IMG/VR virus record: IMGVR_UViG_3300050162_000080
Location: 1 to 39,542 of that record
Source of the DNA: a virus
Taxonomy: Duplodnaviria > Caudoviricetes
DNA length: 39,542 nt
Reading direction: 5' to 3' (one strand)
Below the pieces are notes generated by a model. The model worked only from the letters and a program-made list of their open reading frames with translations, was not told where the DNA came from and ran no database searches. The position numbers were made by a program, and so were the translations under genes. Below are positions 1,957 through 34,180 of the stretch, piece by piece (the first letter of the stretch is position 1; each line of letters begins with the position of its first letter).

Positions 1957-3096
1957 TCACCACAGCTTTTTTGCCAAGGTTGATGCCCTGAGATTGGCGT
2001 ATCTGAGAAGCATCTTCTGGCTTTTATGGCCAGTGATCTTCATGATTTCCGTTTCAGTCAGTGTGGTGCGTTCAAACAATCGACTTGTGGCCTCGTGCCT
2101 CAAGTCATGGAAGAACAGGTCATCACACTCGGCAACATTGAATATCCCTGGATTGCGTTTGTCTGAAAAGACTTTGCCAATCTCGCTGGATAACTTCTTC
2201 AAGCTGCTATCTGTTCCATCCCACCATGGAAACAGATTGTCTTGAGGAATACCAAGAGGAATATCTTTGTGTTTCCCTAGGTATTCTTTCAACTCAGCAA
2301 CCACTACAGAAGACATAGGAACTTGTCTTTTGGAACCGTTCTTTGTCTTGTCTAAAAAGACTGTTGTACGCGGGATGTCCAATTGACTAATCTTTAATGT
2401 GAACATCTCTCTCAATCTCATGGCAGATTCAATCGCCAAGATGTACAACAGCCTGTATGCAAATGGATAGTCTAAGGTTCTAGGCCGGTACTTCCTGAGA
2501 AGAACACCTGATTGAATCACAGTAAGGATTCTTTCGTGTTCTCCCGGCTCTAGCCGTCTGTCTCTCTCAACATCTTTCCTCACAATACCTGCCAACTTTG
2601 CATCTTGGTCACTGTATTGTGAGTAGCCATTGGGCAGTGTCACAAAAGGCATGTCAGGCAATGCCATGAACTCCTTTCTGACTGCCCAATTACAAGCTCT
2701 GGACAGTGCTCCCACCTTTGCTCTGATAGTTGAGGGGGAATTGTGATCGTCTACCTTCATAGAACGAATCCAAGAGTCCACCCATTTGACATTGATAGCA
2801 GTCAGTGGTTCATGTCCCCTGGCTTCCACAATGACATTGAGGCACTGCCTGTCTTTCTCACTGGGATGGGCTTCCTTCTCATAGGTGCCCACCAGTTCCC
2901 GGATCGTGGCTGTGGAGGCCACTGCCGTCAGTTCCGTGGGAACGATGCCTTTCTTGAGCAAGGCTTCCAGCTTGACTGCATACGCATCGCCTTCAGCCTC
3001 CGTGTCAAAGGTCATGTAGATGGGCTTGGGGAGCACACCTGCCTTCTTGAAGATGTACTCCCACGTCCCGTTGTCTCTCAACCGTTTGCCTGCCAT
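1957..3096 (-). CDS. int: Tyrosine recombinase (phage integrase), 379 aa
   Basis: Full catalytic set R (AMRLRE), K (KTKNG), HxxR (HDLRH), H (TGH), Y (RYANL). AGGAG upstream of the ATG. Confidence 0.95.
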   Translation of the reverse strand: MAGKRLRDNGTWEYIFKKAGVLPKPIYMTFDTEAEGDAYAVKLEALLKKGIVPTELTAVASTATIRELVGTYEKEAHPSEKDRQCLNVIVEARGHEPLTAINVKWVDSWIRSMKVDDHNSPSTIRAKVGALSRACNWAVRKEFMALPDMPFVTLPNGYSQYSDQDAKLAGIVRKDVERDRRLEPGEHERILTVIQSGVLLRKYRPRTLDYPFAYRLLYILAIESAMRLREMFTLKISQLDIPRTTVFLDKTKNGSKRQVPMSSVVVAELKEYLGKHKDIPLGIPQDNLFPWWDGTDSSLKKLSSEIGKVFSDKRNPGIFNVAECDDLFFHDLRHEATSRLFERTTLTETEIMKITGHKSQKMLLRYANLRASTLAKKLW

Positions 3097-15849: not shown

Positions 15850-16296
15850 GTGACGACGTGTGTGCACATGTACACCGAACACCGTGTGAACGGTGAGTGG
15901 GTGGCAACCTCTAAAGACACCTTCAATGAAGAAAAGCCCAACCGTTTCGGCTGGGTCAACGCAACCATGCGCAAGGTGGATTGTCCAGAGAACTACCAGA
16001 TATATGGCCTGTTACATGATGGGGTCAGAACATCCTGGCCCTGGGCATTCAAACCAAGAGGAGTGCCCATGGACGTGAGTGAAGAAGTTCGCTCTGTCTG
16101 TGATTCTTTTGGATTTGAGGGTTATGGCCACAGCCACATCACACTCAAACACTTGGTTGAAAAGTACCTGGAACTTCTGGTTGCAGGGCCTGATGCCAAG
16201 ATACTACTCCCCTACCTGCGTGAACTGATCGAGTCAGTTCCTCGTGCGGTAGAGAACCACCACGACGTTCGTGTTGTGTTCTGGTTCGATAGTTAA
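15850..16296 (+). CDS. Hypothetical phage protein
   Basis: GGGAG RBS and GTG start. Pattern VR...PRGVP.D.S...HSH...RVVFWFD. Confidence 0.75.
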   Translation: MTTCVHMYTEHRVNGEWVATSKDTFNEEKPNRFGWVNATMRKVDCPENYQIYGLLHDGVRTSWPWAFKPRGVPMDVSEEVRSVCDSFGFEGYGHSHITLKHLVEKYLELLVAGPDAKILLPYLRELIESVPRAVENHHDVRVVFWFDS

Positions 16297-16334
16297 ACGT
16301 TGAGGGAGCCTCCGTCTCCTTCTGCGAAAAATCC

Positions 16335-16367
16335 AAGAGGGTGTCTCGAAAGAGGCACCCTCTTTTT
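16335..16367 (+). terminator. Terminator-like hairpin
   Basis: AAGAGGGTGTCTC-GAAA-GAGGCACCCTCTT-TTT. Confidence 0.7.
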
Positions 16368-16382
16368 CATTCAAGGACACAT

Positions 16383-17914
16383 ATGACTCAGCAAGTCAAC
16401 GATCACCTTATTTTGTTGGTTGGCAAATCTGCTACTGGCAAATCAGCTTCCCTGATGGGTTTGAAGAATCCTGAAGGGGTTCTCTACCTGAACTGTGAAG
16501 CTGGCAAACGACTGCCATTCCCTGCCAAGTTTATTCAGAAGACGGTCACCGATCCTCTGCAAATCTACGAGGCATTTGAATGGGCAGAGCAGCAAGCGCA
16601 CATCCACACTATTGTGATTGACACCCTCACGTACCTGCTTGACATGTACGAGTCGATTCACGTTTTGCCCTCATCTAACACCATGCAGGCTTAACTACTA
16701 GGCCGCCTGGCTAGAAATAGCCAGGGCAATACCGATTGAATTCAGGGAAAACCTAAGTCTGAAAAGATATGGCAATCCTGAGCGAAGACTGAAAGTACCC
16801 TAGCAAACAAGTACACTGTGTTTATTTGAAAGGGTATGTATGGGAAAAAAGCGCTACGGAAATGAATTGCATCCCTTGTACACACGATGGCTATCCATCA
16901 CGCAAAGGTGCACAAACCCCAACCACACTAGCTATATAAACTATGGTGCAAGGGGAATTTCCCTATCAGAAGACCTCAGATCATTTGAAGATTTCAAAGC
17001 CTTTGTTGAAAGCCTACCCAATTACAGTCCTACAGAAGGGACTGTTGACAGGCTGGACAACAACGAAGGATATACAAAATCAAATTTGAGATGGGCTTCT
17101 CGCAGCACACAAACCGCCAATCAGCGATCAAGTGGAAAAGGCTGCAATAGGTTTACCGGAGTAAATTGGAGCGTCACCCATAAACGATGGGTTGCTCGCG
17201 TAACATTTGAGAGCAAAACTCTTTTTTCAAAAGTCTGTTTGACTGAGGAAGAGGCCCTGAATGCGCGTAACGCATTCATCTCTCAAAACAATTTACCCCA
17301 CCCCATACAGTAATTTCAGTAACGTGCAACGACTATCCCCACAGGGGGAGTAGGCCTCAAGCTATTGGAGGTCGAAGCGGTTGGCACCTAAACAAGTAAT
17401 GTTGTAGGTGAAGATATAGTCTCTTCTCATGGGAAATCATGAGCAGTTCATAAGAGAACGGGCCAAGGCGTAGCGTCCTTGGTCGAAGATTAAGTGGGGC
17501 CAGTTCTCCCAGTATTTCAAGGTGCTGATGCAAAACCATGTGGCGAACTCCAAGAAGCGAGTGATCTTCCTGGCCCACACTGCCGACAACATGAACGAGT
17601 CGGAGATGGTCATGGAAACCAAGGTGCCTGTGAAGGGTGCTCTGAAGAACAACGGAATTGAAAGTTACTTCAGTGTGGTCATTGGTTCCAAGAAGGTTTC
17701 ACTGAAATCTCTCAAGGAATACAAGTCCGACCTTCTGAACGTGACTCCTGAAGAGGAAATGCTTGGCTTCAAGTACGTCTTCCAAACCAAGCTCACCCGT
17801 GAAACCGTCCATGAACGCCTTCGTGGTCCACTGGGTATGTGGACCAATGGTGAAACCTTTATTGACAATAACCTTCAACTGGTCTTGGATCGACTCCAAA
17901 CCTATTACGGCTGA
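16383..17914 (+). CDS. Sak4-like P-loop ATPase / ssDNA annealing protein (N4 gp44-like), spliced: join(16383..16691,17495..17914), 242 aa
   Basis: Exon 1 has Walker A GKSATGKS and Walker B IVIDT. Joining GCT|TGG gives continuous NTMQA-WGQFSQYFKVLMQ in frame with the 17522..17914 ORF (IFLAH). Lies between the primase and SSB. Confidence 0.88.
16692..17494 (+). mobile_element. Group I self-splicing intron, 803 nt
   Basis: Exon ends in U and intron ends in G. P1 GGCU|UA-loop-UAGGCC has the U-G pair. Core elements AATTCAGGGAA, GGCAATCCTGAGCGAAG, GCAACGACTA and GAAGATATAGTC (P7 GACTA/TAGTC). Confidence 0.92.
16840..17313 (+). CDS. Intron-encoded homing endonuclease (HNH-like plus AP2 DNA-binding domain)
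   Basis: YGARGI...TVDRLDNNEGY..SNLRWA...Q..NQR, followed by FTGV...KRWVARV. Bracketed by the ACTGAAA (16788) / TTTCAGT (17314) stem in the P6 region. Confidence 0.85.
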   Translation: MGKKRYGNELHPLYTRWLSITQRCTNPNHTSYINYGARGISLSEDLRSFEDFKAFVESLPNYSPTEGTVDRLDNNEGYTKSNLRWASRSTQTANQRSSGKGCNRFTGVNWSVTHKRWVARVTFESKTLFSKVCLTEEEALNARNAFISQNNLPHPIQ

Positions 17915-20385: not shown

Positions 20386-23300
20386 TTACAGCAGAGAGAG
20401 AATCGTATTGGCCGTGGCCGCTTCGGTCAGGGCTTTGGGGTAAACCGCAGCACCCAAACCAATGGGGTTGTGTCCAATTCGAGTCAGGAACGAACTGTCT
20501 GTAGGCATCGGAAGATTGCCTGCAAAGTTGTTCAAAGCCACCGCACTGAGAACGCGCAGAGGGTTGTCTTGGAAGTTGCGAGCCAGGACACGCTGAATGC
20601 TCAAGAAATACTTGATGAAAGGCAACACACCCATTTCATCCATATACTGAATCTTCTTGGGCAAAGGAATGTCGTAGTTCACAAAGGCCTCAGATGCCTC
20701 AAACACAGCTTCAGCACTGGTCATAGGATTCTTTCGAGTCGTCAGATGCTTGTACATGGCATACCGACTGATGAAGTCCGAATACTGAGTGGCTTTGCTG
20801 GGAATCTTGTACAGAAGGGAGTCATGGGTCATGTACATGAACCTACCTGCTTTGAGCACATGCTTGTTCAAGCCCGAGGTTTTATCCTCCACCCAGTTGG
20901 TGAGTTCACTCTTGTAAGAGTACGGGTTTTCTTCCATGGACACATCTTCCACCAGAGTCGGCAGCAAGCCTGCATCAATCATTTCCTTGATAGGGTTGCG
21001 TGCAATCCGGTCTTGCAACTCCACCATTTGAGCCGCCACTTCGTCCATGCTTTGGCTTCCGTACCCGGTGTCCTGAATCAACTGCAGTCGGGCCAGGGCA
21101 GCTCGGTCACGTTCGTAATCCATCACACCCTTCAAAGCAATGTGCTGGTCACGCAGGGAATCCAACATGGGTACGCCCTTCAATGCCAACATCATCATGT
21201 TGGACAGCATGTTGTCTCGCAGCACGGTGAACGACTTCACCACAATGAAATCCTTGGCTTCCTGAACAATCTCTTGCCAGCCAGCCTCGATTTGACGCAC
21301 GGTGGCTGCACCACGCTTGGCGTACTGGATTGCACCTTGCTGGTCCATCTTCAAAGCCTTACGTGCGTACAAACGCAGTGAGTACCCTACCGCATCCATG
21401 AACTGACGTTCAGCCCAGTTTGGCTTGGCTTTGTCGTACATGTCGGCCAGGCTCATTTTGCGATACCCAAACACCACATCCACCATGTTCTTCGGAACCC
21501 ACAAGCCATCTGTGCCCCAGATACGTTGCACGTCTTGCTTGGTTTTCTCAGGCAACATGTCCCAGATTTCCTTCATCTTGGGGTCCGTGCTGGTGTTGTG
21601 CACCTGGATGAACTGCTTAGGATTCAGACCAAAGTTCTTGGTGTAGTGCTCACGCAGAGCTTCCATCACAAGTTCGTTCTGTTCTCGGGTGGCTTGCTTG
21701 TCAAAGGTTTGACCTGCCATCGTGCCCAACAGATGCTCGAAACGGTTGTCTCGACGGAGCAAGGTGTCTCGCGTCTGGTGGCCCATGACATAGCGGTAAT
21801 CCACCATTTCCCCATGCTGGTTCAAGATGGGCAGCATGTAGTTCTGCTTTTCACGGGCTTTGAACGGATCAAAGCCAGGATCGGCCTTGAACTGGTTCAA
21901 CACTTCTTGATGAGCACGGCTGGAAATTGCGGCCATGCTCAAAGCGTTGTTCTTGCCTTCTTGCAGATGGGTGCTGTAGAACTGGTTGTGCTTGCTGGTG
22001 CCCTTGGCTTTGGTATCGGTCAACGACACCATGCCAGTCAGACGACGGCTCATGCCACCACCTCGCAGGACATAGATCATGGCCTTGCGTTTGTCGGGAT
22101 CGTTCTTGTCCAGCATCACCGGCTGATAGGCCACGTAGCCTTTGTCCAGCAAGGCTTGCACCTCTGCAGGATCACGGGCAACTTCAAATGCCACAGTGGG
22201 GTCAACCACTTCAGGCATGTAGCCATGAATCATCATGGTTTCACTGTTTTTGAACAAGCGTTCTTCTGCCTGGATGTGCAGATGCTTGTGCATGTGCAGG
22301 GCCATCAGAACACCGCTTTGGTCACCACGGACACTCTCAGAACGCATCAGAGAGGCTGCTGCTGCGATGGAATCCTTGTTGGAATACCGAAGGCCATACA
22401 ACGTCACCAATCGCTCCAAAACGAGTTTGGCTGCTTCGCTGTGTGCCGGGGCCTTGCCTCCCAGGTTGATCACCGAAGCGATGTTGCCTGCATTGAGCAT
22501 TTGGTTGTCCACTGCCACCATGCCGGTGGCAGTGTAGAAACCAAGACCCTTGGCCTGCTTGATGTAGTAATGCACCTCTGGGTAGCCAGACAGCGCACCC
22601 ACTTCCTTGTCGATGGCTGCTTTCAGTGCCTTGGGGGCATCCAGCATCTTCAGGATTTCGTCCATGCTGTAGCTGTCCACCAGGAAGTGCATCCCGGTAC
22701 GCAGCACCACAGAAGCCAGGGCATCACTTTGCTCCTTGGTGATGTCTTCCCCTTCGTTGGCAAAGGAAGACTTAACCAAGCTGGACACGTCGTTGGACAC
22801 GGCCAGTCGCTGCTTCTCCACCTTCTTGGCTTCCAGCAAAAGGGTGTTGGCCCACTGAGAAATGCCACTGACATAGTTGACCAGGCCCAAGGCAGTGCCC
22901 GTGCTGGATTTCCACAGGGAATCTCGCATGGCATTCATCTGTTGGACGATGGCTCCGGCTTTGCCACTGGCTGCAATGTTGGTGGCAACACCCGCAATGC
23001 GAACCACCTTGAAGCTGTTTTGCTTCACAAACTTGGACTGGGTGGCGTTGACCACTTGCTGTCTGATGCCTTTGACAACCTTGGCTCCTTGGGCCTCGAT
23101 GGGATCAAAGAAAGAGGTGATCGACTTGCCAGCCATGATCTGGCCCTTGCCTCGGCTTTCGGCTTGTACCAAGTCAGTCACCAGTGCAGCCATCTTTGAG
23201 GTGCCTGCTTGGCCCAAGGAAGTACCCGTCTGCCAAGAACCCACCCAATCGGTGGCAGCACGCCAAGTAGCTTCCACACGTTCCATGAAGGAACGACCCT

Positions 23301-26300
23301 TCATCACCAGGTCTGCCTTGCGAGTCTCAAAGGTCATGGCTTTGTTGAACTGCTCATTGGCCAGGGTCAACGCCATGAAGCGAGCCATGTAATTGGACTT
23401 CCCATCCAGGGAACCATGCGATTCTGGCTGGAAGACGAACTTGTAGAGGTCGGTCGGGATGTTGCCTTTGAGCTTTTCCTTGGCTTGTGCGTAGAGCTTT
23501 TCCAGTTCACGGAACACAGCGTTGTCTACTGCCGACTTGTCTTGCAGGACATGGGTGAACACGGCTTCCACCTGTTCAGCCACATAGGCTTCTTTCTGAG
23601 AGAAGCCAAGAGGAGCATTGAGCACCCGCGAAGAGAAGGGACGCTGCCCCTTGGCCTGCAGAGCAGACCAGACATCCAAGGGGTTGTTGCCCAAGCTGGC
23701 TTCAATCTGGGTTTTCACTGCACCAAAGGGACCATGCAGTTTGTTAACCACATCATCCAGCACAGTCTGCAGCCGTTCCTGGAACACAGCACTGGAGCCA
23801 TAACCACTCAAGGAGTCGAAAACTTCCTGAGTGGTGTAGTCGTTCACAGGTGAAGGTGAAACCATGTTCATGGTTTCTTCAATGTCTTGCAGCTCCTTCA
23901 CGAAGTTTCGGTCTTCGCTGGCTTCCATGACTTCCACCAGGTCATTCACTCGGATCACCAAAGCCGTGAAAGCATCCACTTCAGCTTCCTTGCCCGTCAT
24001 CTGACGGTTGAACAGCAAGCCAGTGACCTTGGTGATGAAGTCATGCAGGGCAGTCACAAACTTGCCCAGCTTGGACTTGACTTGAATCTTGCCCAACTCA
24101 GCACGGACATCCTGGTTGGTCAGCCCCCAGGAGATGAACTCATCCAGATTGCCGGTGGCGTGCACCATGTTGTCGCTCATGGACTTACCACGGTGGTAAG
24201 CCTTCACTTGTTGAAGCAAATTGTCGAGGTCGGTAACGATCTTCTTTTGCTCTTCTGTCCGGGGCTTGCGAACCGTGCTCACCAAAGCAGCGTGCAGCAG
24301 CTCGTGCACCAGAAGTTCCGAAGTCAAACCAGACTTGGCGAACTCAGTGCCACGCACGTAGATCGTGTTAGTGGACGGGATGAACCATCCACGAGAACCC
24401 AGTTCGTTGACAGGAAGGTCTTCTTCAAGGGTTTCCGTGGTGACGTACTGCACTTTCAAGCCAGGAGGAAGGATGGCCTTGACTCGCCCCAACATGGTAC
24501 GCAGGTACTTGGCTTCCTGGTTTTCGCTCTTGCCCAGGTGCCCTGCCAGGAACTCCACCAACTCTGAACCATCCATCTTTGGTTGGCCTTCAAACAAAGC
24601 CACCAGACCAGGTGCAGGGGCCACAGCAGGCTTGCCAATCGGACCCAGCACCGTGCCAAAGCCCTTGGTGTACATCTCACCCAAGAACGACAGCAGGCGG
24701 GCTGCCTGCTCTGGTTTGAGGTTTTCCGTGATGGCTTGAGTAGCTCCCTTTGTACCACCCCCTGCCTCAAATGCTCGCAGCACCTTGTCAATGGCGTAGT
24801 TCTGAAAGCTGTGGGTGCCCTTGCGATCTTTCAGCAATCGAAGCACACGGATGATATGGTTGTCAGGCATGGCCGTTACAGTGACAAAAAACTCAGGGTT
24901 TGTGGTGATGACTTCATCCACAACAGGAGACATACCACTGTTCAGAACTTCCCCCAAACCACCCAAAGCAATGCCAACTTCATCTGGCATGGTGAACTTC
25001 ACTTCTTCCAGCTTTTTGACTGCAGCTTCTCGGTCTGTATCAGTGACCACATACTGACCACCTTGCAGTGCGTATTGGTCAATAAAGCCCATCTCAGCCA
25101 GAACACTCAGACGCATCTGATCTGCCACACCTGCTGTGTAATACGCATTGCTGACCAAGCCATTGATTACTTCAAGTAGGCTCTGATTTTTAATCCTGGC
25201 TTTGTCTTCTTTCGGTGCTGCTTTCAGAGCATCAGCTTTGATTTGTTCCAGTGCTGCAGTCAGTGCCGGAGTCACGTATTGCTGAAAGCTCTCGTCAGCC
25301 ATCAGCTTGCCAAGCTCTTGCAGCATGTTGCCCATGGAATCGGCCATGGCCTTCATGGGGGAGTAGTTCAGCAAGGCTTCCCAAGTGGCTGCATTGAGGT
25401 TCTTTGCCACCTGAGTGAACTCACCCATGCCCGCCACATGAGCATCATGAATGTTCAATGCTTCCGACAAGAAAGCTGCCACATGGGAGATGTAGCTGTC
25501 AGACGAGTGGATCGAAGCAGGAACCAGAGATACCCCCGGATCAGCGGTCACCATGCTTTCCGCAGCCACTTTCTCAACACGGTTGGTTTTTCCAGACTCA
25601 CGTTGGAAAGCCACATTGGTTTCATACTGACTGTCCGAACTCATCTGTTGCTTGGTCTTGGCCACAGGCAAACCAGCATCAGGATTGCCACTGGCTTGTG
25701 AGTACGCAGTACCCAGAACAGGCATCAACTTGTTGATCCGAGTCATGAACTCGGCTTCTTGCTTCTGAGAGAGGTCTACCGTGTTCTCGCCCATAGCAGA
25801 CATGTCGATGTCACCTTGCAGTGCAAGCTCTCGGATGTACTGCTGCCGGAGCGTTGAACGCACCGCATCCGAAACCAAGTACATGGCCTTGGCAGTGCGG
25901 GTCATTGCATTACGGCGTTCAATGATCCCAGCGAAGGCAGTCCCCATGGTGTCAACCATGGGCTTGCCGAACTTCTCAGAGAAAGCCTCTTTCAAGACTT
26001 TGCGTTGTTGCCAAGTCAGGGGAGTTGCCAACAGATCAGACAACGGCATGTGCTGAATCTGCTGCGTGCTCGGCAAGATTTTGTTGAGGTTGTCAATCAG
26101 TTCAGCCGTCTTTGCGTACTGCTCACTAGCAGGAAGGCTTGCCAGCTTTTCCATCTTGGAATACACAGCATCCAAGAAAGTGTCACCCAAGCCTTCTTGA
26201 ATGGTTCCCAAGCCAGAACCAAACATCAAAGCAGTGATCGGCTTTTTCACGATGTCTCGACCACCCTTGGCAATCTTGCCAGCCTCATCCACCATCTCAC

Positions 26301-29300
26301 CTACGAAGTACCACAGAGGCTGGAAAGCCGCAGACTGAATGGTCTGCATTCCCAGGTTACGCATCACAGCCTTGGCAAGCGATTCGTACAAGTCTAGGGC
26401 ACCTTCACTGCCCCGATAGATGTTGTAGTTCTGATGCTGGCTGTCCTGGTGGAAGAAACCACCACGCTTGACCACATTGAACAAGCGTCCCTTGGTATCA
26501 GCGGCACCCAGGAACAGATGTGTCAGCATCGGGCCGTTGGTTACACCATCGACCTCACCAATCAGCACTGCATCAAAGGAGCCGTTTTCAGGCGTCATCT
26601 CGTACTTGGCCAAGGCAATCAGGGCATTGAGGGAGTGCGCTTTCTCACCCGCTTCCTGAACACCTGCCACCACAGCAGCCTGGTCAAAGGGATTGCCTTG
26701 CAGACCCTCTTTCAAAGCAGCCACAGCAGCTTTGATGACTTCGGTACCCGTCTTGCTTTCCCACTTTGTCAAAGAATTCGTGTTGTCTTGCTTGTCAGTC
26801 TTGACACCCAAGCCTTCCAGCACACGCAGCTTGAAGTCCATGACTTGGGCTGCATTGGTCTTGTCCACCTTGGTTTGCCAAGTGGGGCGATACATCATGT
26901 ACCGATGAATCTTGCTGGTCTGTGGGTTGAACAGGTTGTTCTTGATGCCCACACGGAAGTTACGCCAGACTTCATGCTGAAGGAAGAAGGGCTTTTGCAC
27001 ACCACCGTTCATGCCCATCGTTGGCACAACATGGTCACTGACGAATTCGATCAGGTTAGCAAACTCTCGCTTGATGCCATTGTTCTTGGCTCCCCGTGCT
27101 TTCACCTTGTCGATGTGCACCGGGTTTTCATCCAGAGGCTTGAAGCCAAACATCTTCAAAGCATTGTCCTGGTCCATGCTGGCAACCAGGTTGAACACGT
27201 CCATGTTGATGTAGTTCTCTTCCTGGTTCTTCTTGTTCAGGATTTCAGCTTGCTTGCTGGAAATGTTGGAAGTGGACTTCTTGGCTTTACCTTGCTTGAA
27301 AGGAATCGGTTCAAAGGTAGGAGCTACCTTGCTGGCATCCGTACCAAACAAACCGTCCACCACATTGTTGGCACCTCGCTGGGAGTCCACCAAGGCCTGT
27401 AGCTCATTGGACAGCTCACCTTCAGTGTTTCGCACAGGTGTGACGAATTTGAAGATGGTCTTGGCATCCACATTGGCCAGCATTTCTGCATCACCAAGCA
27501 GCTTGGTCATTTCATCCACGGTCATTTCCGTAGACTTGAGCAGGGGTACCAGCTTCTTGGGATCTTCAGCAGAAGGCACCAACGGGCGTACCATCAGGTT
27601 GACTGCGTAGGCACCCAAGGCTGCTTGAATTTTGGGCAGCGTGTCTTTAGGTGCATCCACCAGTGCCTTCAAGCCAAGTGCATCTGTGATCTTCTTGCCA
27701 ATCTGATTTTTGACAGCGCTGGCAAACGTACCGATGCTGGCGAATGCCTCCATCAATTCGGGAGAGACTTCTTTCTCTTCAGGACGACGAAGCATCGTGT
27801 TGATGTCTTCTTCATCGTTATCCAGGCTGCGAACAGTTAAGCCATTGAGGTAAGACATGATGCCTGCAGCTACTGCAGCCTTCACGTTCTCATCCATGTC
27901 CACCGTGCCATTGGCTTGGTTCAGCAAGTGCTCCACCGGGTTACGGTGGCGGAAATACTTTTCACCCAATGCCATGCGAGTCTTCTCGGTGGCTTTGACG
28001 ACTTGCTGTGCAAATCGGAAGAAGGATTTCAGGGCTTCCTTTTGCTCTTCGGTGACAGCTTCCTTGAGGAACTTAGAAGGCAGAGCTTCACCAGACTTCC
28101 ACTTGCTCAGGAAGTCTTTGACTGCAACCAGAGGACGACGTGTGACAGCAGTGACACCACCACTACCTTGCTTGAGCAGTCCAGCCAGTGGGCCAGTCTC
28201 ATCAGCAATGGCACTCAGTCTTCCGTCTGCAGAGGCGGCAGCTTCTTGGCTTTCACTGTTGGTGCTGGCTTGCTCGGAGGCGGGGGCAGAGCTTTGTTGT
28301 TCGCTTCCTCCTGCTTCGCTTGCAACATCGCCAGAAGAACTTCCATCCTGCGTTTCGGGCTGAGTGCTCGAATTTTCATCAGTGCTAGGTGCTTGCTCAA
28401 TGGCGTAATCTTGGGCTGCATCGTTGAACTCTTGGGTAATTTCTTCAACAGTCAATGGCTGTTGCAATGCCTGGATCGTTACGTCCAGTCGGTTAAGGGT
28501 TTCAACTGTACTCTCAGTCAGGTAGTTGCGTTCACGCAAACGCTCAATGATGTGCTCACGCGCTGCAGCTTCATCTTCTGCAGTGCGAGCCATGCCATTG
28601 CCAAAGTTCAAGTTGAAGGGCAGGAAGTCGTCCAGGCTGCCATCAGTGATCTGGTCAATGAGGCGACGGGCGTTCTTGCCCTTCAGAGCCGTGTACCGCT
28701 TCTTCCACTCAGTCCCATAGACTTCATTCAGGTCAGCGTCTGAGAGGCTGTGCTTGATTGCCGAGTACAGGCTCTTGGGGTTCTGACGAATGACACGCCG
28801 GTACTCTTTTTCTGCCTGCTCCACTGCACGGTCAAGGTCTGTCTTTGGGTTGGCCTCAGTTGGGGCATCTGCTGCTTGAGCAACAGGTTGAGGCTCAGGC
28901 TGAACCGAGTCGACAGCAGGGGCTTGGGACTCTTGAACTTGATCAGGCTGACTTTGTGCAACCGTGGTGCTTGGGGCATTGGCTTGGCTTTCTTGGCTTT
29001 GAGCCGGAGCAGTAGGCTTACTGTTGAAATGGATGTCAAAGGCTTGGCTCAGAGCACTGTGCACCTGCTTGATGGCCCGGTACTCTTTACGCACTCGGTT
29101 CACCAGTTCAAGGCTTTTTTGGCTCTTGGGATTGACGAAGTAGTTTCCTGCATCCCGGAGTTCTTCTCGGGTCTGGGTCATGGGCGAAGCCTTCCAGGAA
29201 CCATCGGATTGACGGACGATCTGGAAAGGCTTGCCAGCATTCTTGGCATCCAGGACAGCCTGGGACATGACTCGGGCCTTGGCTTCATGGCTTGCCAGGA

Positions 29301-31383
29301 AGTTACGCAGACCTGCCAACTCTTTGGCTGCACGGCTGGCATCCATGCCTGCCACGAACTTGCCAAAGCGATCCCGGTAGTCTTGCAGACCCTTTTGATC
29401 GGTCTGACGGTCACCCACCAGCACTTCCTTGCCCACCTGCTTCATGTTCTTCAGGGAAGCAATCTGCTCATTGGCAATCGAGAAAGCAGCCAGGTAGTCT
29501 CGTTCTGCCTGGGTCAGACCATTGTCTTTGTTGTCCACCACCGACTTGATTTCTTCAGCCGTCATGGCTTCAGGAGAAACCATGGACAGGGTGAGCAGCT
29601 TCTTGGCAGCTTGAGGTGCCTTCACCGGATCACTGCCTTGTGCATCTGCCAGGGTTTCTTGCACCGGAACATCACGCACTGCTTTCACAGTGTCTTGTGT
29701 CATGGCGTCATAGACCTTCTGGGCATTTGCCAGAGCTTCGCTGGACTGGGTAATTTTGCTTGCCAGTTCAGGGTCTGCAGCAGTCTGCTTGGCACTGGTC
29801 AATTCAGCCTGAATGGTGTCGATGTCCGCTTGCAAAGCAGCAGCACTGGGATCGCTACCCAATGTGGCTTGCTCTTCCTTCAACATGGTCAAGGTATCTT
29901 CCAAGTCCTTGATGCCATCAGGCGTGTTGCTCTTGAGAGCATTGACTGTGCGTTGGTAGTAGTCCACCAGACCTTTGGCTTGTGCTTGGAAAGTCTTGCG
30001 TTCTTCTGGCGTGGTCCCCTCGCTGGCATTGAGAGTGTGCAAAGCAGCCAAGGCTTGTGCTGGGTTGAACGAAGGGCTCTTGGGATCGGCAAGGTCACCC
30101 ACATTGCGATCAGCCACCGCTTTCTGCATGGCAGCATTTGGTGTCACAGCGGGGGCATCGGTGTCTTTACCGAAACCGGGCATCGAAATCTGACTGGCCC
30201 CATCAATGGCAGCAAATGGGCCAGCCATGCCACCACCCACCATCGCACCGATGGCACCACCTTTGAAGATGTCCATGCCAGAGGCAGGCTTCAGTTGAGC
30301 TTCGCCTTCCAGGTAGGTTTGTGCAGTTTCAGTCAGGCCTTCAGACACGGCACCTTCTGCAACACCCAAAGCAGTGCCTTTGCCTGCAGCAAGCAAAGAC
30401 TGTTTCAGGGTCTGCTTTGTCAGGTCAGTTGCTGGCTTGGCAAGTGCTTTGTTCAAACCAGTGAGTTGCAGACCATCCCCCGCGACTTCAGCCAGGCCAG
30501 CCATGGCAGCAGAAATGGCCATGTCATCGCGCAGGGCTTCAGGAGGCAGCGCACCACCATTGGCTTTGCGATAGTTCTCAATGCCTTGCTGATAGTTGTC
30601 AATGGCGTAACCGGCATTGAAGCCAGTCATCACGGCTTTACCTACGCGACCATAGGCACCAACGGCAAGCTGGGGGACGTTTTCTGCAAGATAGTTCAGA
30701 GCACCGGCGGGGTTGTCCTTGGCTGCCTGCAAGCCTTTGACAATGAGCCCACCAAGACCACTTGCCACTTTGGACCAACCATCCCCATCTTCACCTTTTC
30801 CCAAGTGCTCCCAGCCTTGCTTGATCTTGGTCAGATTGGCTTCAGTGTCAGCACCTTCCAGGCTGTTGCTTAAGGCCTGACGGTCATCCTGATTGACCAG
30901 GTGTGAAAGGTCCAGCCGAGCAGAGACATCACGAGCAAGCTCACGCTTGTTGTTGGAGGCTTCAAAGGCTTGCAGAACAGTCTGTTGCTGCCAAGGACGC
31001 TTACGACTCAAAAGCCCCATGTCCTCCTTGGAAGCAGTCCCCTTTACATATCGACCGTAGGCGTCGTACTCGTTCTGGTTCAGCCCTGCTGTCTCAAGGG
31101 CTGCAGAGGCGTCAACAGGCAGGTTGTGCAAAAATGCAAGACCCTGTGCCGATCCGCTTGCAATGGCGGCACCGGCATTGACCAGTTGACCCGCAGCGGA
31201 CGACGAAGACAGGCCCAATTTGGAAACCAGAGAGTCTGCATTTTGAATCTGAGCAGCTTCCCTTTCTGCAGAAAACTGTGAAAGAGCAGCCATTTTTCGA
31301 TTCATGGCATCAACCAAACTGACGCGCTTTGCCTCAGAAGGATTCCAGGATTCCAAATTGGTCAGGTAAATCTTATCGCTCAT
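20386..31383 (-). CDS. Virion-encapsidated RNA polymerase (N4 gp50-like), 3665 aa
   Basis: Size; no Cys seen on reading; T7-family motifs A (EVDGVTNGP), B (RDIVKKPITALMFGSG) and C (NIHDA); C-terminal HELLH; synteny. Confidence 0.96.
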   Translation of the reverse strand: MSDKIYLTNLESWNPSEAKRVSLVDAMNRKMAALSQFSAEREAAQIQNADSLVSKLGLSSSSAAGQLVNAGAAIASGSAQGLAFLHNLPVDASAALETAGLNQNEYDAYGRYVKGTASKEDMGLLSRKRPWQQQTVLQAFEASNNKRELARDVSARLDLSHLVNQDDRQALSNSLEGADTEANLTKIKQGWEHLGKGEDGDGWSKVASGLGGLIVKGLQAAKDNPAGALNYLAENVPQLAVGAYGRVGKAVMTGFNAGYAIDNYQQGIENYRKANGGALPPEALRDDMAISAAMAGLAEVAGDGLQLTGLNKALAKPATDLTKQTLKQSLLAAGKGTALGVAEGAVSEGLTETAQTYLEGEAQLKPASGMDIFKGGAIGAMVGGGMAGPFAAIDGASQISMPGFGKDTDAPAVTPNAAMQKAVADRNVGDLADPKSPSFNPAQALAALHTLNASEGTTPEERKTFQAQAKGLVDYYQRTVNALKSNTPDGIKDLEDTLTMLKEEQATLGSDPSAAALQADIDTIQAELTSAKQTAADPELASKITQSSEALANAQKVYDAMTQDTVKAVRDVPVQETLADAQGSDPVKAPQAAKKLLTLSMVSPEAMTAEEIKSVVDNKDNGLTQAERDYLAAFSIANEQIASLKNMKQVGKEVLVGDRQTDQKGLQDYRDRFGKFVAGMDASRAAKELAGLRNFLASHEAKARVMSQAVLDAKNAGKPFQIVRQSDGSWKASPMTQTREELRDAGNYFVNPKSQKSLELVNRVRKEYRAIKQVHSALSQAFDIHFNSKPTAPAQSQESQANAPSTTVAQSQPDQVQESQAPAVDSVQPEPQPVAQAADAPTEANPKTDLDRAVEQAEKEYRRVIRQNPKSLYSAIKHSLSDADLNEVYGTEWKKRYTALKGKNARRLIDQITDGSLDDFLPFNLNFGNGMARTAEDEAAAREHIIERLRERNYLTESTVETLNRLDVTIQALQQPLTVEEITQEFNDAAQDYAIEQAPSTDENSSTQPETQDGSSSGDVASEAGGSEQQSSAPASEQASTNSESQEAAASADGRLSAIADETGPLAGLLKQGSGGVTAVTRRPLVAVKDFLSKWKSGEALPSKFLKEAVTEEQKEALKSFFRFAQQVVKATEKTRMALGEKYFRHRNPVEHLLNQANGTVDMDENVKAAVAAGIMSYLNGLTVRSLDNDEEDINTMLRRPEEKEVSPELMEAFASIGTFASAVKNQIGKKITDALGLKALVDAPKDTLPKIQAALGAYAVNLMVRPLVPSAEDPKKLVPLLKSTEMTVDEMTKLLGDAEMLANVDAKTIFKFVTPVRNTEGELSNELQALVDSQRGANNVVDGLFGTDASKVAPTFEPIPFKQGKAKKSTSNISSKQAEILNKKNQEENYINMDVFNLVASMDQDNALKMFGFKPLDENPVHIDKVKARGAKNNGIKREFANLIEFVSDHVVPTMGMNGGVQKPFFLQHEVWRNFRVGIKNNLFNPQTSKIHRYMMYRPTWQTKVDKTNAAQVMDFKLRVLEGLGVKTDKQDNTNSLTKWESKTGTEVIKAAVAALKEGLQGNPFDQAAVVAGVQEAGEKAHSLNALIALAKYEMTPENGSFDAVLIGEVDGVTNGPMLTHLFLGAADTKGRLFNVVKRGGFFHQDSQHQNYNIYRGSEGALDLYESLAKAVMRNLGMQTIQSAAFQPLWYFVGEMVDEAGKIAKGGRDIVKKPITALMFGSGLGTIQEGLGDTFLDAVYSKMEKLASLPASEQYAKTAELIDNLNKILPSTQQIQHMPLSDLLATPLTWQQRKVLKEAFSEKFGKPMVDTMGTAFAGIIERRNAMTRTAKAMYLVSDAVRSTLRQQYIRELALQGDIDMSAMGENTVDLSQKQEAEFMTRINKLMPVLGTAYSQASGNPDAGLPVAKTKQQMSSDSQYETNVAFQRESGKTNRVEKVAAESMVTADPGVSLVPASIHSSDSYISHVAAFLSEALNIHDAHVAGMGEFTQVAKNLNAATWEALLNYSPMKAMADSMGNMLQELGKLMADESFQQYVTPALTAALEQIKADALKAAPKEDKARIKNQSLLEVINGLVSNAYYTAGVADQMRLSVLAEMGFIDQYALQGGQYVVTDTDREAAVKKLEEVKFTMPDEVGIALGGLGEVLNSGMSPVVDEVITTNPEFFVTVTAMPDNHIIRVLRLLKDRKGTHSFQNYAIDKVLRAFEAGGGTKGATQAITENLKPEQAARLLSFLGEMYTKGFGTVLGPIGKPAVAPAPGLVALFEGQPKMDGSELVEFLAGHLGKSENQEAKYLRTMLGRVKAILPPGLKVQYVTTETLEEDLPVNELGSRGWFIPSTNTIYVRGTEFAKSGLTSELLVHELLHAALVSTVRKPRTEEQKKIVTDLDNLLQQVKAYHRGKSMSDNMVHATGNLDEFISWGLTNQDVRAELGKIQVKSKLGKFVTALHDFITKVTGLLFNRQMTGKEAEVDAFTALVIRVNDLVEVMEASEDRNFVKELQDIEETMNMVSPSPVNDYTTQEVFDSLSGYGSSAVFQERLQTVLDDVVNKLHGPFGAVKTQIEASLGNNPLDVWSALQAKGQRPFSSRVLNAPLGFSQKEAYVAEQVEAVFTHVLQDKSAVDNAVFRELEKLYAQAKEKLKGNIPTDLYKFVFQPESHGSLDGKSNYMARFMALTLANEQFNKAMTFETRKADLVMKGRSFMERVEATWRAATDWVGSWQTGTSLGQAGTSKMAALVTDLVQAESRGKGQIMAGKSITSFFDPIEAQGAKVVKGIRQQVVNATQSKFVKQNSFKVVRIAGVATNIAASGKAGAIVQQMNAMRDSLWKSSTGTALGLVNYVSGISQWANTLLLEAKKVEKQRLAVSNDVSSLVKSSFANEGEDITKEQSDALASVVLRTGMHFLVDSYSMDEILKMLDAPKALKAAIDKEVGALSGYPEVHYYIKQAKGLGFYTATGMVAVDNQMLNAGNIASVINLGGKAPAHSEAAKLVLERLVTLYGLRYSNKDSIAAAASLMRSESVRGDQSGVLMALHMHKHLHIQAEERLFKNSETMMIHGYMPEVVDPTVAFEVARDPAEVQALLDKGYVAYQPVMLDKNDPDKRKAMIYVLRGGGMSRRLTGMVSLTDTKAKGTSKHNQFYSTHLQEGKNNALSMAAISSRAHQEVLNQFKADPGFDPFKAREKQNYMLPILNQHGEMVDYRYVMGHQTRDTLLRRDNRFEHLLGTMAGQTFDKQATREQNELVMEALREHYTKNFGLNPKQFIQVHNTSTDPKMKEIWDMLPEKTKQDVQRIWGTDGLWVPKNMVDVVFGYRKMSLADMYDKAKPNWAERQFMDAVGYSLRLYARKALKMDQQGAIQYAKRGAATVRQIEAGWQEIVQEAKDFIVVKSFTVLRDNMLSNMMMLALKGVPMLDSLRDQHIALKGVMDYERDRAALARLQLIQDTGYGSQSMDEVAAQMVELQDRIARNPIKEMIDAGLLPTLVEDVSMEENPYSYKSELTNWVEDKTSGLNKHVLKAGRFMYMTHDSLLYKIPSKATQYSDFISRYAMYKHLTTRKNPMTSAEAVFEASEAFVNYDIPLPKKIQYMDEMGVLPFIKYFLSIQRVLARNFQDNPLRVLSAVALNNFAGNLPMPTDSSFLTRIGHNPIGLGAAVYPKALTEAATANTILSLL

Positions 31384-31407
31384 GCTGTGGCCTATGGATA
31401 ATTTTCA

Positions 31408-31426
31408 GAGATTCTAAAAGAATCTC
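31408..31426. promoter_or_regulatory. Inverted repeat between divergent genes
   Basis: GAGATTCT-AAA-AGAATCTC in the 53-bp gap between the vRNAP start and the antisense membrane gene. Confidence 0.45.
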
Positions 31427-31436
31427 CATTGGAACC

Positions 31437-31664
31437 ATGAAGCTCAAAGAAATGAATTGGCCCATCATCCTTCATCGGATGTACTTGTTAAGCTGGGCTG
31501 GGTTATTTTTTATGATGGCAGGTACTGTGCTACATGAGTTAAGCAAAGGCATTTCTTTGTATGCAGATCATGTAGGAATGCTTACCATTGGTTTTTTGGT
31601 ACCTCCCATCTTGAAAGCAGTAGTTCTTTGGGCACTGGACATCAAAAAAGAAAAGACCAGCTAA
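31437..31664 (+). CDS. Small two-TM membrane protein, 75 aa, opposite strand to the late operon
   Basis: MKLKEMNWPIILHRMYLLSWAGLFFMMAG...MLTIGFLVPPILKAVVLWALDIKKEKTS fills the gap without overlapping neighbours. AT-rich. Confidence 0.6.
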   Translation: MKLKEMNWPIILHRMYLLSWAGLFFMMAGTVLHELSKGISLYADHVGMLTIGFLVPPILKAVVLWALDIKKEKTS

Positions 31665-31677
31665 CGCTGGCCTTTCC

Positions 31678-32436
31678 TCACTTAGAGCCATGCCGGTACT
31701 CATCCGGCCTGGCTAATCCATCTTGGGACCAAACACCTCTCTTGGCTTCTTTGGCTTTCTGCTGGGCAGTATTCAACGCAGGCTCCATTTCTGCTTTGAC
31801 GTATTTCTCATAGACATACGCAGCCCCCTGCTCTACCAATGCTGCACTGAGATCATGTCCCTTTACAGTGACTAAACACACATTGCGAAAATAGTTCGCT
31901 TTATTTGGTTGGTCTTGCGGGGACAATGAAATCTGAACACTGACCTTACCTTGCTCAACAAACTTCTTGAGCACGCTGGTAGCGTAAGCCCCAAATGGTT
32001 GCCCAGGATCATCCTTCCATGCTTTAGGTGATTCAGGGGCGTCTACCCCAGTCACGCGGCATGTCACAGTGTCTCTGGTCCCAGCAAAGTTGCCAGCAAA
32101 AGTATCCCCATCCTTGATAACAGTGATGTTGAACTCTTTTGCGCTGTCCCAGTTCTGAGCCTTTTTAGGCTGTACGACTGTTTTACTCTGTTGAAAGTCT
32201 TTAGGAGTAAACACGGGAATGTTAGGAACAGAGTCCAACTTGGTTGTCTTGTTACCTGACACAGTTACTGCAGTTGACGTGTGGACCTCCCCATTCACCA
32301 TCTGCTTGGACACACCAGGCACAACTTCAATAGGTGCTGTCACCCGTTGGCCATTCGCCTGCACCTTTACAGGTGCTGTCGACAATGCGGAGTGGACTGC
32401 ATCAGCCCTCTCCGCAATAGATGCAGGCGTTACCGT
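31678..32436 (-). CDS. Staphylococcal nuclease (thermonuclease, SNase) domain, probably expressed as a -1 frameshift extension of the upstream gene
   Basis: KDGDT, RVTGVDAPE, YFR, LVEQGAA and AKEAKRGVW. No ATG or RBS near the 5' end (track start is TTG 32385 inside a structure). Frame is open back to about 32454. Confidence 0.85.
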   Translation of the reverse strand, partial: TVTPASIAERADAVHSALSTAPVKVQANGQRVTAPIEVVPGVSKQMVNGEVHTSTAVTVSGNKTTKLDSVPNIPVFTPKDFQQSKTVVQPKKAQNWDSAKEFNITVIKDGDTFAGNFAGTRDTVTCRVTGVDAPESPKAWKDDPGQPFGAYATSVLKKFVEQGKVSVQISLSPQDQPNKANYFRNVCLVTVKGHDLSAALVEQGAAYVYEKYVKAEMEPALNTAQQKAKEAKRGVWSQDGLARPDEYRHGSK

Positions 32437-32442
32437 TTTGGG
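32386..32442 (-). promoter_or_regulatory. Candidate -1 programmed ribosomal frameshift signal
   Basis: In-frame X XXY YYZ heptamer C CCA AAA (32442-32436), a 9-nt spacer containing the stop, then stems CTGCATC/GATGCAG and TGCGGAG/CTCCGCA. Confidence 0.72.
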
Positions 32443-33647
32443 TAAGTGCCTCCCCTAACCGACTTAGTTGTGACGGGTGCTGGTGGAATGAACAACGGCA
32501 CACCTTGGGCATCTGCCCTTTGTTGAGCTGAGTCGATCACTTGAGCAGCACTGCTGTCACGAAGCATCAGAGCCTGTCGCAAATCAGGAATAAATGCTGC
32601 CTTTTGAATCATGGATTCAAGCGCATTGCCTGCAGCATCCCCACGACGGGACCATAAAGCACCATCACCAATCCACTCAGGATTATCACCAACAGCTTTG
32701 AGAATTTGGCTAATCGGCACTGGGTAAGATTCAACGACCTTATTACCTTTGGCATCCTTGGTTTCAACCTTAAATTTCCCATCAGGAAACCGCTTGAAGA
32801 TGTTTTCTTGAACATCTCGCACAGCATTAGGTGGCAATCCTAAAGATTTGGAAAGCTGGTCCATCAGGTTCTGCTTGCCTTCTTTGGTATCAAGAGTCCC
32901 CTCACCCAAAATACCTTTTTTAAGAATGTCTTCTTTTGCTGCTTGCAATTGGGCAGCCGAATTAACTTGAAGCAGCTTATCTCGGTTAGCTGACTCAGTG
33001 GCAATACGTTGTGCTTCCAAAGCACGACGAGCAGCAGCATCTTGAATATGGAAAGCCAAGGTACGGTCAGCAATGTTCATGCTGTGGTTAATCTGCTTGT
33101 TTTGCAGATCAAACGATTGGTCTTCCCTACCAATCTTGCGACCTTCCAGCATCGTGTTTGCCTTGGTGCCTGCACGCACGTTGGCAGCTTCAATGATGGC
33201 ATTGCCTCCTTTGACATCACCCACAGCAAAACGCTCACGGGCAGCAGCCGTGGCATCTCGCTCACTGATGTCAGCCTTGGTGTCCAGGTAGTTCTGGTTT
33301 GCCACGAAGCGTTGCTGTAGCTGGCCAGGCAGGGCCTGTTCAGCATCCCGAGCAGCCTTCATGTCAATCTGAGCACCAAAGCCATCTCGCAGTTGCTGCA
33401 GGGCTCCTGACTGCTGTGCAGCAGCCAAGTCTTCTGGGGTCTTGAATTGCTGCAATCGTTGAAGGAACTGGTCTGTATTGACCTCCTTTTGGGCTTGCCA
33501 GTTCTTGGCTTCCGTGGCTTCCAGCATTTGAATAGGACGCCCAAAGGCATCCAATGCTGCGTTCAAAGAGTTCTGGGCTTGGCCCAGGATTTGGGATGCT
33601 CCACGGAGATCGGGAGCATCTACGTTACGCCAGGTGATAGGAGGCAT
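32430..33647 (-). CDS. Internal virion / ejection protein (N4 gp51 position), 405 aa
   Basis: PITWRNV N-terminus, helical, Ala/Gln-rich, Cys-free. Sits upstream of vRNAP. Confidence 0.8.
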   Translation of the reverse strand: MPPITWRNVDAPDLRGASQILGQAQNSLNAALDAFGRPIQMLEATEAKNWQAQKEVNTDQFLQRLQQFKTPEDLAAAQQSGALQQLRDGFGAQIDMKAARDAEQALPGQLQQRFVANQNYLDTKADISERDATAAARERFAVGDVKGGNAIIEAANVRAGTKANTMLEGRKIGREDQSFDLQNKQINHSMNIADRTLAFHIQDAAARRALEAQRIATESANRDKLLQVNSAAQLQAAKEDILKKGILGEGTLDTKEGKQNLMDQLSKSLGLPPNAVRDVQENIFKRFPDGKFKVETKDAKGNKVVESYPVPISQILKAVGDNPEWIGDGALWSRRGDAAGNALESMIQKAAFIPDLRQALMLRDSSAAQVIDSAQQRADAQGVPLFIPPAPVTTKSVRGGTYPKR

Positions 33648-34180
33648 TATTTGATCCCGTTCTTGTCCATGTAGCTGGACACAGATTCATACGCACCAGA
33701 GTTCGACGCAACACGAGCACGTTGACGGTCTTCCAGTTGGCTGTTGACCGTGGACTTGTTCGCATCCCAGTTCTTGTAGAAAGCATCTTTCTGGAAGTTC
33801 AACTGGTCTTTGTACAGACCTAGTTGTTGCATCCCCGTGTAGGCATTGAGCAGGCCTGTGCCTGCTGACAAAGCCATGTTGCCAATACCTTGGGTGGTCA
33901 AGCCATTCTTGTCCGTGGTGGTGAGGATGCCGTTGTCTTTCATGCTTTGCATGAACTGTGACCAGAGGCCTTGATTACCTGTATCTGCCACATCCCCCAG
34001 CAAACTGGTACCAGAAGTCAGTGCAGCAGTGGTAGGGCTTGTCATGCCATATGCTGTGGTACCCAAGTTAAGTGCCAATGGGTTTGCAGACAACCCATTT
34101 GCGTTGAGTTGGATATTAGGATTCCAACCGGAAGACGGAATCATATTGAGCAAAGATGGGTCGTAAAGACTATTAGCCAT
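33647..34180 (-). CDS. Small internal virion / ejection protein (N4 gp52 position)
   Basis: Gly/Ser/Asn-rich with QLNFQKDAF..N and LEDRQRAR. Synteny. Confidence 0.75.
   Translation of the reverse strand: MANSLYDPSLLNMIPSSGWNPNIQLNANGLSANPLALNLGTTAYGMTSPTTAALTSGTSLLGDVADTGNQGLWSQFMQSMKDNGILTTTDKNGLTTQGIGNMALSAGTGLLNAYTGMQQLGLYKDQLNFQKDAFYKNWDANKSTVNSQLEDRQRARVASNSGAYESVSSYMDKNGIK

Follow-up and report, generated by a model that had tools for sequence, protein, structure and literature searches.

Does a reading frame that lies behind the stop codon of a phage ejection-protein gene become part of that protein, and by which route? The question is raised by a locus of virus record IMGVR_UViG_3300050162_000080, whose whole stretch of 39,542 nt is referred to here as the window and which carries genes for an N4-like virion RNA polymerase (vRNAP), capsid, primase, SSB and a tyrosine integrase. 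The gene at the position of N4 gp51 encodes 405 amino acids (aa) and is followed, in the -1 frame, by a staphylococcal nuclease (SNase) domain. Comparative evidence strongly supports the core of the original prediction, made from the letters of the window, namely that a programmed -1 frameshift joins the SNase domain to this gp51-type ejection protein. The features needed for the argument are the following.

32430-33647, minus strand: putative gp51-position ejection protein (periplasmic tunnel), short isoform, 405 aa, 44.2 kDa, without cysteine (profile matches, synteny)
32449-32456, minus strand: AGGGGAGG, possible Shine-Dalgarno-like 5' stimulator 6-9 nt ahead of the heptamer, a candidate only (read from sequence)
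32436-32442, minus strand: in-frame slippery heptamer C CCA AAA one codon ahead of the stop (sequence; identical in the relative L050)
32356-32429, minus strand: putative 3' stimulatory structure, a three-way junction (fold z -5.6; 11-bp outer stem kept in L050)
31678-32436, minus strand: -1 frame extension of 252 codons, a Pro/Thr/Val-rich linker of ~100 aa followed by the SNase domain (open reading frame, Pfam)
31699-32139, minus strand: SNase domain with D-G-D, R, D-x2-E and a second R, and two cysteines (codons at ~32061 and ~31878) on two beta strands (AlphaFold2, Foldseek, conservation)

The recoding junction of the window

The open reading frame (ORF) of the 405-aa protein (33647-32430) ends with TAC CCA AAA CGG TAA, and the in-frame heptamer that had been noticed one codon before the stop is located at 32442-32436. 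The -1 frame opens 4 codons ahead of the heptamer, extends from stop to stop between 32454 and 31678 and comprises 252 codons past the heptamer, and the fusion predicted from these coordinates has the 656 aa originally proposed, with 71.2 kDa against 44.2 kDa for the short form. A fraction of the ribosomes, facing the three-way junction with its long stem, would shift by -1 at the heptamer, re-pairing the Pro codon CCA to CCC and the Lys codon AAA to AAA, and would add linker and SNase domain. The heptamer CCCAAAA is reportedly used at the frameshift site of phage A2 as well.

The nuclease frame had been described as devoid of a convincing start of its own, and inspection by eye agrees with this, as no clear Shine-Dalgarno sequence precedes the TTG at 32385, which is located inside the 3' structure, or the next nine ATG, GTG or TTG codons of the -1 frame. 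The codon overlapping the stop is GTA, not GTG, in the window and in L050. Contigs of four runs were compared as a check for an indel, and those of two other runs that bridge the junction (X10 record 4, 32293-33156, and X13 record 10, 32343-32839) cross it without a gap, which makes an assembly indel unlikely. A search of viral contigs for the exact 17-nt signal gave 0 matches; the signal is therefore conserved as a class and not as a string. The candidate 5' stimulator AGGGGAGG is not kept as such in L050.

Downstream of the heptamer, after a spacer of 6 nt, an outer stem of 11 bp (32429-32419/32366-32356) encloses a long hairpin (32416-32386) and a small one (32379-32369). The minimum-energy fold containing this stem reaches -41.0 kcal/mol, with a z of -5.6 and 0 of 200 shuffles attaining it. 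L050, the nearest relative to carry this signal, whose tunnel protein and nuclease ORF are 35% and 47% identical to those of the window, retains 19 bases running from the heptamer into the stem. Its outer stem keeps 9/9 pairs, with one two-sided change (C-G to U-A) and one one-sided change (U-G to C-G), and its inner hairpin, of 14 bp, is unrelated in sequence (fold z -4.7). The covariation is thin, the three-way fold being common to these two sequences only. Three-way junctions are known as frameshift stimulators in IS911 (PMC5009743).

An H-type pseudoknot formed by two interleaved 7-bp stems had been proposed at this place. Both complementarities exist (32426-32420/32403-32397 and 32416-32410/32392-32386), but the pseudoknot itself found no support, since L050 contains no H-type combination of at least 6 bp and the bases of stem 1 are needed for the 11-bp outer stem as well. 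The pseudoknot was hence rejected as primary stimulator, and the nested 11-bp stem appears the better-supported candidate. Four other relatives (L074:3944-4030, L076:3845-3920, L077:3710-3775 and L086:3423-3500) have a different fold in common, in which a basal stem and an inner hairpin are combined with a C-rich bulge on the 5' side. This bulge is able to pair with the 3' tail over 6 bp in L076 and L086 (CCATCC/GGATGG and CGTCCA/TGGACG), possibly as a three-stem pseudoknot.

Distribution of the signal and alternative routes

Relatives were collected by protein similarity and not by junction features; duplicates were merged, and SNase matches outside the N4-like context (L078-L081, L083, L084, L099 and Moraxella Mcat8 L003) were excluded ahead of the count. 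Fifteen distinct loci present the order gp52-gp51-SNase, followed by vRNAP where the contig extends far enough, and seven of them (the window, L050, L074, L076, L077, L086 and L087) place the nuclease in the -1 frame. An in-frame heptamer is found 1-2 codons before the stop in all seven, belonging to four types (CCCAAAA, CCCAAAG, GGGAAAA and AAAAAAA/G). The form C_CCA_AAG is named as shift-prone in Escherichia coli (PMC5009743). The search of relatives for a slippery site suggested by the prediction gave a clear contrast, as a heptamer within the last 0-3 codons was present in 7/7 -1 loci versus 0/36 clusters lacking the nuclease cargo (Fisher p 3e-8, or 2e-7 with the window and L050 counted once). 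These 36 clusters represent 57 complete genes from 68 loci, of which 9 run off the contig end and 2 are short. A stem with z <= -3.4 lies within 60-80 nt in 6/7 -1 loci. The nuclease frame of P0018, 77% identical to that of the window, is open.

In-frame fusions had been named as an observation that would contradict frameshifting. They do exist, but they corroborate the fusion product, and many bring a recoding signal of their own. A profile search of 1.84 billion representatives returned, among its top 150 matches, 46 full gp51-SNase fusions, 79 short ORFs and 25 others. The in-frame protein P0022 is colinear with the -1 locus L087 on both sides of the shift site and grouped with it at 98/91; the fusion is therefore a natural product. 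Five of the seven in-frame loci with available DNA (L062, L090, L093, L096 and L097) contain a run of 9-11 A at the junction of body and linker, and the same five meet a stop in each of the other two frames within 0-4 codons. Counted on the plus strand of the redundant locus set, runs of at least 9 A occur 6 times in the 115,791 nt of 15 cargo loci, always at the junction, against 0 in the 498,806 nt of 68 cargo-less loci. At the protein level, a KK motif located 65-140 aa before the active site is present in 18/46 fusion clusters (p 7e-13), against only 5 occurrences elsewhere (25,021 residues). Bacterial polymerase slips efficiently on runs of 9 A or T (PMC5009743), and the A9-A11 runs likely act in this way. 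That many in-frame versions keep an A-run able to restore the short form argues for selection and not for a chance landing.

One further lineage, represented by two assemblies (L009, 5260-5300, and L071, 2415-2472), has GGAGG TCA CTT CAA TGA ahead of a nuclease placed in the +1 frame, with no start found before the homologous linker. This junction resembles the arrangement of prfB, and a +1 shift is our guess. P0166, from another lineage, begins with the same GGHF peptide that is found at the L009/L071 junction, hinting at a shared signal; P0166 was left out of the SNase-domain tree, the motif being absent. Switches between routes are not countable because 14 of 25 inner branches of that tree are open. 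As judged from these sequences, the family likely produces a short and a long isoform through recoding routes that can stand in for one another, as is the case for dnaX, the relatives reaching by A9-A11 runs or by a +1 shift the two isoforms that the window would obtain by a -1 shift. The same two isoforms being reached by several routes, the mixture itself is therefore likely under selection, which would keep both the short and the long tunnel subunit.

Packaging, cysteines and site of action

Fifteen relatives of the 405-aa protein were combined into a profile, which matches DEV gp72 (8vxq) with E 3.7e-25 over profile positions 2-233, and N4 gp51 (11mn) with E 4e-4. The genes are arranged in the order gp52-gp51-vRNAP on one strand, the nuclease ORF being inserted ahead of the vRNAP gene. 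Profile and gene order identify the 405-aa ORF as homologous to the periplasmic-tunnel ejection proteins DEV gp72 and N4 gp51. According to the main texts of PMC13434306 and PMC11445570, the DEV and N4 proteins are present in 12 copies round the portal and in 9-10 after ejection, which leaves over 2-3 of the 12 subunits (PMC13434306), and the C-terminal helices of N4 gp51 are predicted to form an inner-membrane channel, the C-terminus crossing the inner membrane in the model (PMC13434306). By analogy, the tunnel protein of the window would be present round the portal of the virion and would form a tunnel on ejection.

The nuclease assignment is based on both residues and fold. The Pfam SNase family (PF00565) is matched with E 1.6e-17 and 64 bits, against a curated cut-off of 21; the AlphaFold2 model of the domain has a pLDDT (predicted local distance difference test) score of 87, and Foldseek aligns it to 1STN with E 3e-10, a root-mean-square deviation of 2.5 and a probability of 1.0. 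The D-G-D, R-x4-D-x2-E and second Arg that had been read from the window are intact, and in the alignment to SNase all six catalytic and Ca2+-binding residues are present; they correspond to D19, D21, R35, D40, E43 and R87. Among 74 aligned sequences, D, D, R, E and the second R are invariant, and the position of D40 is occupied by D in 63, N in 8 and E in 3. The SNase family is Ca2+-dependent, with which the title of 1SNC is consistent. Scans of viral contigs with a single SNase protein and with alignment A8 found nothing.

SNase domains were also met in other arrangements. P0112 and P0170, virion structural proteins of ~2300 aa (PHROG 30152/6958) from another phage group, have an SNase of the same cysteine type at their end; in PHROG 8809 (2317 positions) one is located internally, and P0153 and P0165 carry it in the middle of the tunnel protein (~residues 320-460) and not at the end. 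In the short SNase proteins P0152 and P0162 the N-terminus looks, by eye, like the vRNAP starts of these loci; both may be nucleases that are ejected free, with a leader for packaging.

The distribution of cysteines points to the compartment in which the domain would work. Schitovirus ejection proteins suppress cysteine, which has been suggested to reflect their passage through the periplasm (PMC11445570). In the window, gp50, gp51 and gp52 contain 0 cysteines and the -1 extension contains 2. Exactly two are found in 72/74 short ORFs and 44/46 fusions, with none in the remainder, and the tunnel body has 0 in 28,517 residues. The first cysteine is absent in 16/17 cellular-type SNase matches. 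From the model, the pair would form a disulfide.

The fusion tails of relatives also carry muralytic domains: in P0039/L096 a glucosaminidase stands between the A9 site and the nuclease, and four other fusions contain an SLT domain (Pfam), the five muralytic fusions being P0033, P0038, P0045, P0078 and P0039. The tail can therefore face peptidoglycan. N4 ejection proteins appear to be without muralytic activity (PMC13434306). Lysozyme-like motifs were noticed by eye in L044, L070 and L089, with no Pfam match; the L044 tunnel protein has 649 aa and starts like N4 gp51. A link between cargo and lifestyle was rejected, as an integrase is present in 3/5 cargo (one a provirus) versus 7/10 cargo-less near-complete genomes. 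The presence of the cargo in integrase-bearing phages argues against a wholesale destruction of the host chromosome. Taken from sequence, the site of action leans to the periplasm over cytoplasmic host DNA or defence RNA.

These elements can be assembled into a mechanism. By virtue of the N-terminus common to both forms, the long one would join the ring of ~12 subunits that surrounds the portal, and after ejection the nuclease would be held on a tether of ~100 aa at the distal end of the tunnel. The domain would stay quiet in the reducing, low-calcium cytoplasm of the producer cell and would mature in the envelope by disulfide formation and Ca2+. That the frameshifted long isoform is packaged, ejected with the short form and active in the periplasm is probably correct. 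The weakest step is the job itself: the favoured role, proposed by analogy and only tentatively, is that the nuclease cuts unprotected nucleic acid outside the tunnel, for example DNA of a co-infecting phage. Superinfecting T4 DNA is broken down in the periplasm, which would be an analogy for the removal of competitor DNA. The widest form of the idea, a widespread N4-like module in which a tunnel nuclease dosed by recoding and locked by redox and calcium destroys competitor DNA in the periplasm, and which has also been grafted onto ejected proteins of other podoviruses, is doubtful as a whole. If true, it would provide a pre-loaded superinfection exclusion acting from the first second of infection, with no need for gene expression.

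Several observations weigh against this interpretation. L087 lacks a strong stem (z 0.3), although it has an A10 run and an upstream GGAGG. In five of the seven -1 loci, not including the window and L050, the stop overlaps a GTG of the -1 frame, and coupled re-initiation is possible there. No junction signal was found in the stretch tested in two of the seven in-frame loci (L088 and L089) and in 28/46 fusion clusters, so the short form is not universal, and the A-run lengths are those of homopolymers, which are liable to mis-assembly. The cargo occurs in only 4/70 rows fetched with the tunnel protein, and the closest full-length relative, L049, is without it. Finally, in the N4 model the gp51 C-terminus lies across the inner membrane, which would allow a cytoplasmic position (PMC13434306).

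This last point leads to the alternative that survives best, in which frameshift and packaging are the same but the nuclease passes through the inner membrane together with the tunnel C-terminus; its targets would be cytoplasmic, namely DNA or RNA of the host or defence nucleic acids, and would be cut at the onset of infection. The predicted membrane channel of N4 gp51 (PMC13434306), the length of the linker, ~100 aa, and the predicted RNases carried by ejected 'polyvalent' proteins including N4-like vRNAPs (PMC5512222) would agree with it. It is nevertheless unlikely, given an all-or-none cysteine pair, the peptidoglycan hydrolase that P0039/L096 carries in the same tail, confined to the long form, and the entry of the phage genome at the same spot. 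The Ca2+ dependence of the family argues in the same direction, and the integrase-bearing cargo phages (the window; 3/5 tested, one a provirus) must spare the host chromosome.

The frameshift product could also be real and have its main job outside the next host, inactive in the cell that makes it and activated by oxidation and calcium at lysis or displayed at the cell surface by spare ejected subunits, where it would digest released or matrix DNA. The logic of cysteines and calcium applies here equally, 2-3 of 12 tunnel subunits are spare after ejection in N4 and DEV, and most samples with the window phage are leaf litter. That at least 46 clusters fuse the SNase to an internal ejection protein, and P0112 and P0170 to other large virion proteins, argues for packaging, and matrix DNA is out of reach of an internal protein before adsorption; a main role outside the cell is thus improbable.

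Still less credit can be given to a nuclease made as a separate protein from its own start (TTG 32385 or later, or the GTG at the stop in relatives), with the heptamer incidental. Gene callers do report a separate ORF (P0017 and P0018), 79 of the top 150 matches are called as short ORFs, GTGA overlaps the stop in 5/7 -1 loci, and the two short matches with a vRNAP-like N-terminus may be free proteins. However, the overlap codon of the window and of L050 is GTA, TTG 32385 is inside the structure and has no evident Shine-Dalgarno sequence, the GTG is buried in the basal stem in L074, L076, L077 and L086, the homology of the linker reaches the shift site, and the heptamer separates the -1 loci from the cargo-less clusters, 7/7 versus 0/36. 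An assembly error or a recent inactivating indel might have disrupted a fusion that was in frame, as the abundance of in-frame fusions in the family might suggest. This is hardly credible in view of two other runs whose contigs have no gap, the recurrence of the 19-nt signal and of the fold in L050, where the protein is 35% identical, the intact catalytic residues and the open frame of P0018 at 77% identity.

Known systems and genomic context

The locus resembles the ejection operons of Schitoviridae (DEV gp73-gp72-gp71 and N4 gp52-gp51-gp50; PMC11445570, PMC13434306) in gene order, gp72/gp51 homology and absence of cysteine, and differs in the extra nuclease ORF between the tunnel gene and vRNAP, joined by recoding. 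The words 'nuclease' and 'frameshift' have 0 occurrences in the main texts of PMC11445570 and PMC13434306, and no Schitoviridae record appeared among the INPHARED matches to two cargo queries. Frameshift-extended virion proteins are known from T7/T3 gene 10, Lactobacillus A2, Listeria A118/PSA and Ig-like tails (PMC5009743). There, too, a shift at the 3' end adds a C-terminal domain to some subunits, and -1, +1 and in-frame versions coexist; unlike the present case, in which an enzyme would be added to an internal, ejected protein, they are outer capsid or tail proteins extended mostly by Ig-like domains.

A second parallel is dnaX, whose tau and gamma forms arise by a -1 shift in E. coli, by reversed cases or by slippage at a run of 9 in Thermus (PMC5009743), and which shares with this family a long and a short product, interchangeable mechanisms and stops in both other frames after the run. 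The window case is in contrast a phage virion gene, and the analogy is one of logic, not of homology. The extension resembles the SNase family (PF00565) in fold and catalytic residues and differs from it in that the phage domain has no signal peptide, is tethered to an ejection protein and bears a clade-specific cysteine pair. Polyvalent phage proteins (PMC5512222) are likewise virion-packaged enzymes delivered at infection, including add-ons to N4-like vRNAPs, whereas here the cargo would be on the tunnel subunit and dosed by recoding; SNase, 'staphylococcal' and 'frameshift' have 0 occurrences in the main text of that paper. No description of the module was found in the literature searched, in which subscription journals are largely missing and supplements fall outside the scope. 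Each element has a precedent in frameshift-extended virion proteins, dnaX or polyvalent proteins, and their combination on an ejection tunnel appears new.

Should the proposed mechanism hold, a DNA-ejection tunnel would double as a rail for enzyme delivery, and phages would tune the copy number of the enzyme by recoding. Three interchangeable routes at one junction (-1 with stem, A9-A11 and +1) would constitute a rare natural test of whether the isoform ratio or the mechanism is selected. Annotation pipelines would be splitting or fusing the tunnel gene wrongly in dozens of schitovirus lineages, and the domain offers a concrete, assayable candidate for the role of an ejected nuclease in the envelope.

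The locus is framed by the following features.

33647-34180, minus strand: gp52-position ejection protein, 177 aa, without cysteine (PHROG 2646; placed as 'N4 gp52-like' in LUZ7)
31648-31679, minus strand: intrinsic-terminator-like hairpin directly 3' of the nuclease stop (consensus scan only)
20386-31383, minus strand: vRNAP, 3665 aa, without cysteine (PHROG 2206)

The consensus scan gave no terminator-like hairpin between the gp51 gene and the nuclease ORF, and Rfam gave no match at E 1 over 31300-32700. Among the 23 runs listed with the stretch, 22 are leaf-litter metagenomes; all sampled words of the stretch are present in 5 runs, and 9 of the listed runs are possibly the source of the DNA itself. 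No RNA run is listed among the 23, a fact that has no bearing on expression.

Three side observations concern the rest of the genome. The tyrosine integrase of this N4-like phage is encoded at 1957-3096 (minus strand), and an integrase is also present in 10/15 near-complete relatives. Between terminator and vRNAP start there is a non-coding gap of 260-320 nt (window 31384-31647, L049:5330-5640 and L050:5970-6260) with short motifs near its end common to the three, a possible regulatory element. A Sak4-like annealing gene (15850-17313, plus strand) appears split into pieces next to an HNH endonuclease (16341-16694 and 16840-17313), which suggests an intron or a homing insertion.

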